A DNA stretch of 64,000 bases from Gammaproteobacteria bacterium (GTDB taxonomy: Bacteria; Pseudomonadota; Gammaproteobacteria; Eutrophobiales; Eutrophobiaceae). Positions 60,375-64,000 of the stretch are shown piece after piece. The first letter of the stretch is position 1. Each line of letters begins with the position of its first letter. The DNA lies in assembly GCA_965222155.1 (NCBI GenBank), contig CBDCTH010000012.1:2784001-2848000 (forward strand), read 5' to 3'. The position numbers and the translations under genes are program-made. The notes under the pieces are model-generated. The model had not been told where the DNA came from. It made no database searches and saw only the letters and a list, made by a program, of their open reading frames with translations.

Positions 60375-60431
60375 CCATTCCTGCGCAGGCAGGAATCCAG
60401 TCAAAGTAGTCATTCCTTAAGATAAGTAAGA
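60375..60431. repeat. Left half of a REP doublet, truncated at the mobile-element junction
   Basis: CCATTCCTGCGCAGGCAGGAATCCAGT plus a partial ATTCCTT spacer; no right arm follows. Confidence 0.65.
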
Positions 60432-60477
60432 CTAGCATTCCTTGTTTCACAATATGATCGACAAAAAGGTCAAGTTT

Positions 60478-62089
60478 TCAGGCGGCGATTTTGGCGCATT
60501 GGATGTGCTTCTCTATCATGTTTTCCACCCGTTTGACAGCAGCCACCAAGGGTCGGGACGGACTGAGGTCGGTCGGGTCGAACAACTGTGACAACCCGCC
60601 GCGCAGGAGCTGGCTGTGCATCTTGGTAAAGAACAGACCGATACGCAGCCCCGCACTCGTCACCCGATAGCGCCGGCTCGATGGTATCCGTTCAATCAAC
60701 CCGTGCAGTCGTAAGCGGCGCAGGTCATAGGTCATCTGTCCGCTACGGTACTACTGGGGTGTCTTGCCCAGGAGGTGGGCCACGTGCTCACGTAAGCCGG
60801 CGTGACGGAAGCCCTGCGGCAGCAGGGAGAACAACAGCAGGGCCTGGAGCAGCGCCATCACCCGCGGGGCCCCGAACTTCAGGGCCGCGGCAGTTTGCCC
60901 GGCTACCGTGCGCCGGCCTGTGACCCGGTCAAACACCCGCGCCCCGATGCGGCAGTCCTGGCTCAAGGTGTCGACGTGCAGTAAGCGTCGGTTGGCCGCA
61001 AAGCCGACCTCCCGCAGGGCGGGGAGGTTCACCAGTTTCTTGCCAATGCCAAAGTTGCGGGTATTATTGACCGTGGTTTCCGTGCGCAACGCCCGGTCTT
61101 CCTTGAAGTACTGTTTGATCTTCGAGTCCTGATAGCTGATATGCAGCGCCGGCGTGACGCCGGCCGTCACCACGCGGGTGCGCAACGCGCCCGGCGTGCG
61201 CCGGGTCACCCGTCGGTTGAAGAGCAAACTCACCTGGCTGGGGCGCCCCAGGTCCAGGTTCTCCCGAATCACTTCTTCAAAGAAGCAGCGGCCCGACAAG
61301 GGCCGGTCAAACACCTGGGTCCGGGCAAATTCCGCCTGCAGGATGGATAAGTCATAGTCAAACCCCGCCGCACGGTCCTCGGCCGTGAACGGCGCCGGCA
61401 GCCGTGCCAACCACTTGCGTACCACGCCCGCAATGCGTCGCTCGTCCAAGCCGTCGGCTAACGCCTGTGCCAGGTGGGGTTGCTCACACACAGGACAGCA
61501 AGCCGTTATCCAGTGCCCGACAGCCCACCCCGCGCTTGGCCAACTGTCGCTTGAGATACTCGCGACCGTTCAAACACACCCGCGCCGTGTACGGGAAGTA
61601 GCCAGCGAACTTGATGAACAGCGGGCCAAAGTCAGCCTCCACCAGGTAGACGTAGTACTGGTTGCACCTCACCGTCGTTCGACCCAACCAGGGAAATACC
61701 TGACCGCTCGCCGGGTTGAGTTTCTTCTCGACCCGGAAGCTGGCACACTGCTCCTGCGCCACGCCGATGTAGAGCACCCCTTCGTTCCCCTGAAACGACG
61801 ACAGGTAACCCTGCGTCACGTCATCCTTGCGTACCCCTTTCTCAAACCGTTCAATCACCACGCCCTCGGCCCGGGCAAACTGACGAATATGCTTGACAAA
61901 CGTCCGCGACAGGGGCGCCATCAGCGTCGTCGAGGCCACCTGCGCGCGCCGGTGCTGCTTGAAAAAATACGCCACCCCGGCCCCGGTCTGCAGCCGCGGT
62001 TGATACGCATTCAGGTACAGACGGTCAATGCACTCGATATCCAGTGTCACCTGGTCTTGTAGCAGATTACCTACGGTTTGCGTTATCAT
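60478..62089 (-). pseudogene. ~535-aa transposase-like protein with Rep_trans-like motifs and a C-terminal winged helix; frameshift near 61487 and in-frame TAG at 60751-60753
   Basis: Three ORF pieces join into one protein (TLDIECIDRLYLN...NQYYVY..DFGP..IKF..YFPY...LNG; KIKQYFKEDRALRTETTVN; MTYDLRRLRLHGLIERI...YRVT). Confidence 0.7.
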
Positions 62090-62434
62090 AGTCTCCGCTC
62101 CGGTTGCCATGGGGCGTAAGCCCCCCCCCACCGCCTGCGCGGTCATAACCAAAGTCTACCCGACTTCGGAGGTCAGCCGGCGCTCTTTTCATGGCTTGTC
62201 GGTATGAGGCGAAGCTTCGCTAGATACTGGTTTCACGTGTCGGTCAGAAAGACAAAAGTCTCCTGATAAAAAAACGCGTTTGCCTGTTCGAAAATACTGC
62301 TCATAAAAAATATAACTTATAATCAAAATATTATGAATCATCATAAAAAAATTATAATTATAAATATGACGGCTTTTCACACGTTTCCGGCATTGGTACC
62401 AAGCTGAGTTTTTCTTCGGAGGTCTTTCACGGCG

Positions 62435-63662: not shown

Positions 63663-64000
63663 GTCGACCCTGAAAAACCCTGTTTCAGGTTGGCATTGAG
63701 GGGGCCGGTAGGGGCGGCAGACAGACAGGCTTGTGGCTCAACAGCGTGCTGGCGCCTGACAGACGAACAGACGCTCTGCGGCAGCCAACCCGCGTAGCCA
63801 AGCCAGTATAAGTATCCTTTTTTTGAGACAAAAAAACCTGAGTCGCCGCAGGATCAAGCGCAGGTTGTGGCCGGCACAACTCAACAGCACATTCAACTGG
63901 TCCCCGTCTGTCCCGTTCAGGTGATTGCGCCCCAACAGCCCATCGGCTTTCAAATGACCGATGACCGGTTCAATTGCCTGGCGGCGCTTGAGCGACCGTT
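63663..64000 (-). mobile_element. IS5-family element, right end and transposase C-terminus (continues beyond the window)
   Basis: KRRQAIEPVIGHLKADGLLGRNHLNG..GD..N.LL..AGHNLR motif; terminal sequence GTCGACCCTGAAAAA at 63663-63677. Confidence 0.85.

Follow-up and report, generated by a model that had tools for sequence, protein, structure and literature searches.

An inactive copy of an unclassified, CTAG-targeting insertion sequence that may encode a Rep_trans-like transposase with a TATA-binding protein-like fold

The stretch of DNA analysed here (the window) comprises 64,000 nucleotides of a Gammaproteobacteria bacterium of the family Eutrophobiaceae (assembly GCA_965222155.1, contig CBDCTH010000012.1, positions 2,784,001 to 2,848,000 of the forward strand), and it carries, at 60432..62223 on the minus strand, a 1,792-bp element with CTAG at both termini. 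We favour, with moderate confidence, the view that this element is a dead member of a large unclassified family of autonomous insertion sequences (IS), whose transposase is a Rep_trans-type nuclease with a TATA-binding protein (TBP) fold that acts strand-wise at CTAG. The window copy is inactive, a pseudogenised member of this family, because a frameshift and a premature stop interrupt its coding region, and comparison with relatives identifies the element as an autonomous single-gene mobile element of ~1.8 kb. The 535-residue protein is predicted with high confidence to have a two-lobed TBP-like domain at its N-terminus and a winged helix at its C-terminus; catalysis and a rolling-circle or single-strand mechanism are what we infer for it.

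The extent of the element, terminal CTAGs included, was drawn from the comparison of within-genome copies elsewhere, from a full copy in the sister genome G007 that is 86% identical to the window copy, and from copies at contig ends in the sister genome G016. Four genomes hold 2-4 copies each, 99.8-99.9% identical within a genome and 1,740-1,807 bp long, with sharp homology ends. The element is present in 3 of the 23 genomes of the window's genus; in G016 all 12 matches, six of them left ends and six right ends, reach the end of a contig, and at least six element copies interrupt the assembly. A genome search found no second coding copy of the family in the window's own genome (G000). The same genome holds a 108-bp miniature derivative (contig C1, 85986-86093; L004/L068 1501-1608) in which an intact left end is joined to an intact right end with CTAG at both flanks, a second miniature 81% identical to the first (contig C12, 2664793-2664894), and a 92-bp relic of the right end in which the CTAG has decayed (contig C12, 2258184-2258275). 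An attempt to treat the C1 miniature as an insertion inside an aminotransferase gene, whose frame would serve to count the CTAGs, was abandoned. Its flanks lie ~16-40 kb apart in the sister genomes, so that the miniature marks the junction of a deletion or rearrangement by which an aminotransferase-like gene is truncated.

Empty sites were found in the sister genome G022. One G016 insertion was reconstructed from two contig ends (left flank C7, right flank C43), and in G022 the same flanks are contiguous through a single CTAG, identical in the displayed junction stretch; this CTAG includes the TAG stop codon of the upstream gene. At a second site, that of the insertion at G016:C48, G022 has an identical left flank and one CTAG, and a search for the right-flank partner contig of this insertion found none. 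G000 was rejected as an exact empty site for the G016 insertion since it has CTGA at that position, and two further flank searches returned no close relative. As far as the comparison of occupied with empty sites goes, the element is shown to insert at the palindrome CTAG, which then stands on both sides of it. The CTAG at the left (5', coding-strand) junction of the window copy (62220..62223, minus strand) can be assigned to the target, since the two G022 empty sites already have it. The doubling of CTAG would fit a 4-bp duplication, a 2-bp duplication of TA, or a target CTAG joined to one borne by the element; duplication and flank-plus-end look alike because CTAG is identical on both sides. 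A preliminary description of this DNA, made from its letters and open reading frames, had proposed a mobile element at this locus, and the multiple copies, the miniature derivative and the exact empty site bear this out; the family is not single-copy and syntenic.

The boundary CTAG is present at 25 of the 26 displayed junctions, the exception being the truncated right end of L023; the left end of L041 has it and lacks the next two bases. A second set of junctions has CTAG at 13 of 14, the left end of L081 reading CCAG. Among relatives with proteins 44-89% identical to the intact 535-residue protein P0001, left ends carry CTAG in 19 of 23 cases and CTAA or TTAA in 4 of 23, and right ends, 45-47 nt long, read AAAYTTGAC...CTAG in all 17 loci with an extracted end, in agreement with the CTAG terminus of the preliminary description. 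Left ends follow the scheme CTAG-C-hairpin-AGACCGACGAG, the CTAG being followed by CGAGGC-TTC-GCCTC-AGACCGACGAG. In the window copy the right-end non-coding segment (60432..60477, minus strand) reads AAACTTGAC-N-AAGGAATG-CTAG, a motif conserved over 45-47 nt in 18 copies; on the coding strand the stop codon is followed by AAACTTGAC...CAAGGAATGCTAG, and the last CTAG lies at 60432-60435. The termini have only CTAGC in common, and of 89 inverted-repeat pairs the 25 longest include none that connects one terminus with the other, so that the element lacks terminal inverted repeats, as had been proposed. Of the extent first given to it, 60432..62230, the right end stood, but the left end lay 7 nt too far out, the CTAG ending at 62223.

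The family to which the element belongs is large. A word-seeded search in which 8,000 candidates were scored returned at least 7,936 homologous proteins at E<=1e-3, most of them exactly 535 residues long and encoded on contigs of ~1.8-2.5 kb. HMMER, run exhaustively over 1.84 billion representatives of clusters at 50% identity, gave 10,659 matches at E<=1e-3, 5,191 at <=1e-10 and 1,086 at <=1e-30; the family has at least 10,659 such clusters. The 55 loci found in species-representative genomes belong to Gammaproteobacteria, Desulfobacterota, Acidobacteriota, Planctomycetota, Verrucomicrobiae and Actinobacteria-type lineages. Relatives also occur on 25 plasmid records (Rhodococcus 15, Burkholderia 3, others), where they are annotated as 'hypothetical protein' or not at all, apart from one 'ArsR family transcriptional regulator'.

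This last annotation, borne by a distant homologue, would suit a quite different role, in which the protein is a regulator or, as part of an integrated remnant of a plasmid or phage, a replication initiator, with the element itself moved by an enzyme encoded elsewhere. It would also suit such a role that TBP-fold nickases are described, in the available text of PMC5714925 and PMC13107129, for replication and conjugation and not for transposition. We nevertheless consider it highly improbable. The 1.8-kb unit has this gene alone and is too small for a second-strand origin and other plasmid functions, and the gene always occurs together with the same ends in several phyla, its proteins being 44-89% identical. 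Moreover, copies with exact boundaries lie at unrelated chromosomal sites, and the miniature derivatives retain the ends alone.

Sequence searches did not place the protein in a known family. Pfam gave no family at E<=1 for the three window fragments and NCBIfam none at all for them, and with three intact homologues (E<=10) Pfam yielded no PF02486 (Rep_trans) match and only sub-threshold noise, including AbiEi_4 (E 2.1) and DUF6733 (E 0.011). Nor did PF02486 match anything in the whole genome (0 matches). DDE, HUH (Y1_Tnp, Y2_Tnp), DEDD and serine-recombinase domains were without a match in Pfam or NCBIfam, which speaks against IS110/IS1111 and IS607. Against the PDB, the single protein found one irrelevant match (E 0.55); the family profile found 13 weak ones (E 0.052-1.3), of which nine lay on the C-terminal winged-helix region, where only weak matches of the MarR type were obtained, and four were to ribosomal protein S2. 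The ESM Atlas gave no usable match. Judged by sequence, the family belongs neither to Rep_trans nor to any known insertion-sequence family tested.

AlphaFold2 modelled the full protein from a 23-sequence alignment with a pLDDT of 86.1 and a pTM of 0.81, and the N-terminal 381 residues alone, from 29 sequences, with a pLDDT of 91.8 and a pTM of 0.88. The N-terminal domain was folded and searched alone because whole-protein fold searches were dominated by winged-helix matches. In the models, residues 1-376 form the TBP-like domain, two beta-alpha-beta4-alpha lobes that share one curved sheet, and residues 381-512 form a winged helix. Foldseek against the PDB retrieved the Rep_trans entry 4cij (probability 0.94-0.99, E 2-3e-3), and no TBP was among the 50 best rows. 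Against a viral library, it gave 23 matches at E<=1e-3, namely giant-virus TBPs, VETF-like factors and unnamed proteins; going by their accession series, we suspect that the unnamed A0A345M and A0A345N entries are inovirus initiators, as is A0A345MNV4, which stands in the same list at E 6.5e-3. The latter is described as the Rep_trans-domain initiator of an inovirus (PMC13107129). When the N-terminal domain was compared structurally, the six best matches spanned both lobes and most lower rows one lobe only; the whole-domain matches were TBPs and three Rep_trans initiator structures only. Rep_trans enzymes are themselves reported to have a TBP-like fold (PMC13107129, PMC13595969).

The motifs singled out in the preliminary description, QAEFARTQ, KIKQYFKEDRALRTETT and a C-terminal MTYDLRRLRLHGLIER helix, are all present in the window copy. 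Eight residues, D22, Q250, E252, K324, Y326, K328, R334 and E336, are invariant in a 10-sequence alignment that includes a homologue only 23% identical, and they include those chosen at the outset (Q250/E252, K324/Y326 and R334/E336). K328 and E336 remain nearly invariant (>=90%) when 23 or 29 sequences are aligned, and D22 and E252 are invariant in all alignments. These residues lie on four beta strands of the model: D22-R23, within C-I-D-R-L-Y-L, on strand 14-29; Q250-x-E252-x-A on strand 245-259; K324-x-Y326-x-K328 on strand 321-328; and R334-x-E336 on strand 332-339. In Rep_trans the nucleophile is a beta-strand tyrosine (Y191 of RepDE, in R189-x-Y-x-K193), the metal ligands D46 (motif N'), D142 and E214 are on separate strands, and motifs I and IV read R140-x-D142-x-A144-x-D146 and R212-x-E214, respectively (PMC4797284, PMC5714925). 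The family motifs follow the Rep_trans motifs N', I, III and IV in the same order and with the same i/i+2 pattern, and both sets occupy the strand that opens each lobe and the final two strands of lobe 2. The structural alignment with RepDE begins by pairing model residue 15 with residue 39, and that with RepSTK1 by pairing model residue 14 with residue 1, so that D22 would coincide with the metal ligands D46 of RepDE and D9 of RepSTK1 if the first strand is ungapped.

The Rep_trans set used for comparison comprised PF02486, RepC and RepD of pT181-type plasmids, RepSTK1, inovirus initiators and NicK of ICEBs1. With these proteins the family shares a two-lobed TBP-like catalytic domain (as modelled for the family), a conserved beta-strand tyrosine in [K/R]-x-Y-x-K, conserved carboxylates on the strand that opens each lobe and in R-x-E on the strand after the tyrosine, and a DNA-binding domain C-terminal to the catalytic domain; action adjoins a hairpin in Rep_trans and would do so in the family. 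It differs in that sequence similarity is undetectable by Pfam PF02486 and hhalign, that its domain measures ~376 residues instead of ~200-250, with long inserts and an additional invariant cluster in lobe 1, that motif I reads Q-x-E and not R-x-D, and that 8 residues instead of 21 separate the tyrosine from R-x-E. Furthermore, the family resides in a chromosomal IS with defined ends and a CTAG target, whereas Rep_trans proteins serve a replicon or conjugative element. A pT181-type RepC gene was encountered on a tiny contig (L119; G182 contig C184, 2.2 kb) of a genome from the window's class, and is probably a staphylococcal plasmid contamination of the G182 assembly.

It is also conceivable, if quite unlikely in our estimation, that the TBP-like domain merely binds DNA and that the chemistry is of another kind, for example metal-dependent hydrolysis by D22, E113 and D151 as a DDE-like triad on a new scaffold. 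A true target-site duplication from repair would then account for CTAG or for its central TA. The invariant acidic and histidine residues of lobe 1 that have no Rep_trans counterpart would find a role in this way, the lack of sequence similarity to Rep_trans in hhalign would be expected, and IS5-type DDE elements likewise target CTAG. However, no RNase H-like, PD-(D/E)xK or other nuclease fold is among the listed structural matches, terminal inverted repeats were not found, and the series D / x-E-x-A / K-x-Y-x-K / R-x-E mirrors the order of the Rep_trans active site on equivalent strands. Foldseek, which weighs local structure and residues, also ranks Rep_trans (probability 0.94-0.99) above cellular TBPs. 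IS5/IS1182-type DDE elements resemble the family in their CTAG target and in having CTAG on both sides of the insertion, but they have terminal inverted repeats and a transposase of the DDE type (PF01609), and the family showed neither.

A relationship to Rep_trans visible only in structure has a precedent in Rep-Arvir/DUF7845, whose authors state that it was unrecognisable by sequence (PMC13107129). According to the same source, these proteins likewise begin with a TBP-like nuclease domain, continue into a winged helix and have a tyrosine motif of the K-x-Y type, and Rep-Arvir requires a nearby hairpin DNA element; they serve the replication of archaeal viruses and plasmids, whereas the present family is bacterial and transposon-borne. 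Pfam at E<=10 on three intact homologues gave no match to PF25227, the presence of which in that copy of Pfam is unconfirmed.

The left end of the element carries a hairpin at element positions 6-18 or 6-20, which in the window copy lies at 62206..62218 (minus strand) and reads GAAGC-TTC-GCCTC, compared to GAGGC-TTC-GCCTC in most relatives. On the coding strand 91.5% of 106 cells are paired, two pairs show compensatory changes (A-T to G-C in one sequence, C-G to T-A in four), and one additional C-G pair is gained in six sequences. The covariation score was reached by 0 of 500 shuffles, and sliding the partners lowered pairing to 19-48%. On the complementary strand all of the 106 cells (100%) are paired, nine A-C mismatches becoming G-T wobbles, which hints at a hairpin that functions in the non-coding strand when this is single-stranded or extruded. 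At the right end, a hairpin picked out by eye (TTGAC...GTCAA) was rejected: RNAalifold gave 0 consensus pairs, and single-sequence folding z-scores ranged from -1.8 to +1.8 on both strands.

We propose that the TBP-like domain would work as a metal-dependent tyrosine nuclease of the Rep_trans type, in which D22, E252 and E336 would hold the metal and Y326, in K-x-Y-x-K, would attack the phosphodiester at CTAG to yield a 5'-phosphotyrosine link, while the winged helix would read the end sequences. Cleavage and rejoining would take place one strand at a time, the ends being presented as a hairpin or as single-stranded DNA, in a mode possibly akin to the 'peel-and-paste' transposition of single strands, or to the rolling-circle transposition, that the HUH enzymes of IS200/IS605 and IS91 carry out. 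The active strand is likely the complement of the coding strand, because the left-end hairpin pairs perfectly there. With IS200/IS605 and IS91 the family has in common the lack of terminal inverted repeats, an end hairpin, miniature derivatives, a fixed tetranucleotide next to which insertion takes place and, putatively for the family, its use as the terminal cleavage sequence of the element as well as tyrosine-nuclease chemistry. Unlike them, it has no HUH/RRM fold and no Pfam Y1_Tnp or Y2_Tnp match, its protein has 535 residues compared to ~150 (Y1) or ~400 (Y2), its tetranucleotide is palindromic and the same at both ends, and a hairpin is supported at the left end only.

The same TBP-fold tyrosine chemistry might instead cut both strands. 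A dimer, or the two lobes of one chain through Y146 and Y326, could make a staggered cut in duplex CTAG in the manner of type II topoisomerases, leading to double-strand cut-and-paste in which religated cohesive CTAG (or TA) ends regenerate CTAG on both sides. A 4-bp palindromic target that is found twice when occupied and once when empty would be expected from such a reaction, as would a right end without a supported hairpin, and two invariant tyrosines do lie on pseudo-equivalent strands of both lobes. Rep_trans proteins are dimeric, and Carr et al. likened their site, a tyrosine with three carboxylates, to that of type II topoisomerases (PMC4797284). We nonetheless judge this course of events unlikely: duplex cutting has no need of a left hairpin, yet the hairpin is kept by compensation and pairs better on one strand, and the dissimilar ends are hard to square with symmetric recognition. 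In addition, we know of no Rep_trans enzyme that makes double-strand breaks.

Several observations weigh against the strand-wise, Rep_trans-type mechanism that we favour. The PF02486 profile fails to match the family, and hhalign, comparing the profile of the N-terminal domain with a 4-sequence Rep_trans alignment, returned a probability of 0.1%, for which reason the residue mapping from that comparison was discarded. The pairing of Y326 with Y191 of RepDE is drawn from motif order and strand topology, and a second invariant cluster, in lobe 1 (E113, Y146, Y148, D151, N174, H176 and N195), has no Rep_trans counterpart. A palindromic target that recurs on both sides fits a symmetric, staggered double-strand cut at least equally well. 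The strand argument from the left hairpin comes down to nine G-T cells from 2-3 related clades, the non-Watson-Crick cells of the leader described below favour the non-coding strand by 9 to 3, a weak excess, and the right end is without a supported hairpin. The Rep_trans-like character given to the protein in the preliminary description therefore stands on fold (Foldseek, 4cij) and motifs, but not on sequence profiles.

Beyond the left hairpin, the segment 62090..62205 (minus strand) contains the conserved motif ATACCGACAAG followed by a structured leader, as delineated by alignment and RNAalifold. In the leader, of 134 nt, a closing stem encloses internal hairpins; compensatory changes are seen in 12 of the 19 predicted pairs, and Watson-Crick pairing holds for 280 of 304 cells, lending substance to the structured 5' element that had been raised as a possibility. 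No Rfam match was found for it. Since the 3' arm of the closing stem, CAACCGGAGC, contains the GGAG ribosome-binding site just 5' of the ATG, it is plausible that the structure hides this site from read-through transcripts (translational masking). The loop of the first leader hairpin (window ~62140-62146) has a conserved TA-n-n-C-T hexamer (TAGACT, TAAACT, TATGCT in alignment A6) that resembles a -10 box but is without proper -35 spacing. No sigma-70-like promoter was found within the left end of the window copy. Immediately past that end, the DNA at 62224-62420 is very rich in AT and contains two matches to sigma-70-like promoters facing the element (62380-62351 and 62337-62309, minus strand); read-through transcription of the element could start from these flanking promoters.

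The coding region of the window copy is split into three successive minus-strand open reading frames (62152-61484, 61491-60751 and 60735-60478) that together make up one protein, starting with MITQTVGN at the ATG at 62089-62087 and ending at the natural TGA stop at 60480-60478. Compared to the intact P0001, identity is 87% over residues 1-202 and 91% over residues 200-535. Residues 1 to ~201 (61488..62089, minus strand) make up the first TBP-like lobe and include D22, Q112/E113, Y146/Y148/D151 and N174/H176. They are followed by a 4-nt insertion in a TG run (61484..61487), which is missing from the intact copies L079 (from G007) and L011, is the single indel in the alignment with these copies, and shifts the frame, thereby creating a TGA at 61484-61486. 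Residues ~202-445 (60754..61483, minus strand) cover lobe 2 and the start of the winged helix and contain QAEFARTQ, KIKQYFK and LRTETT, the codon for Y326, within KIKQYFK, lying at 61108-61110. An in-frame TAG (60751..60753) replaces the CAG of intact copies, and the segment 60478..60750 codes for the rest of the DNA-binding winged helix as well as for the terminal helices. Both lesions named at the outset, the TG-repeat frameshift and the TAG, are therefore seen against intact copies.

A few relatives depart from the usual form. L121, on the Paraburkholderia plasmid pOLGA1 (1153-2667), codes for a 504-residue homologue that is 23% identical and is annotated as an ArsR regulator; it retains all putative catalytic residues, and its flanks differ, being CTAAG- or CTTAG-like with a hairpin of their own. 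A sister subfamily of this type may use a different target. In the 652-residue protein P0003, a stretch of ~115 residues that takes in the tyrosine motif is duplicated internally. The chimeric P0032, in which a DDE (PF01609/PF13751) transposase follows on from the family protein, probably reflects an insertion sequence inserted into a family element.

The neighbourhood of the window copy holds further repeats and gene fragments. A REP-like palindromic repeat (CATTCCTGCGCAGGCAGGAATCCAGTC...) at 60375-60430 adjoins the right end of the element, and ~25 short matches to it, on several contigs, are among those listed in the genome search. An open-ended minus-strand open reading frame (...AIEPVIGHLKADGLLGRNHLNGTDGDQLNVLL...) at 63738-63998 presumably represents the C-terminal part of an IS5-type DDE transposase. 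The last 2 kb of the window seem to be a patch rich in mobile elements, and in its local setting the dead copy matters only insofar as it marks a variable, mobile-element-rich region.

Transposases are known with DDE, DEDD and HUH catalytic domains, as serine and tyrosine recombinases, and as Cas1. In the literature, with ISfinder and closed-access papers outside the scope of the search, no paper was found on a TBP-fold or Rep_trans-like transposase or on this element, and the available text of three papers presents the TBP-fold Rep_trans lineage from nicking in plasmids, phages and conjugative elements only (PMC13107129, PMC13595969, PMC5714925). The balance tips slightly, in our view, towards a new mechanistic class of transposase, in which a TBP-fold, Rep_trans-like tyrosine nuclease joined to a winged helix serves a seamless, CTAG-specific IS found as more than 10,000 clusters in many phyla; such a transposase may work with two tyrosines in one chain. 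If this is true, the Rep_trans lineage with its TBP fold would have to be added to the transposase types listed above. A second, non-HUH lineage of rolling-circle nickases would then also be a transposase lineage, completing the parallel between two unrelated folds. That so abundant a family is labelled 'hypothetical protein' in databases points to a blind spot of insertion-sequence annotation and to a frequent cause of contig breaks. A small enzyme for seamless DNA insertion at a fixed 4-bp site would also be of interest to tool builders.

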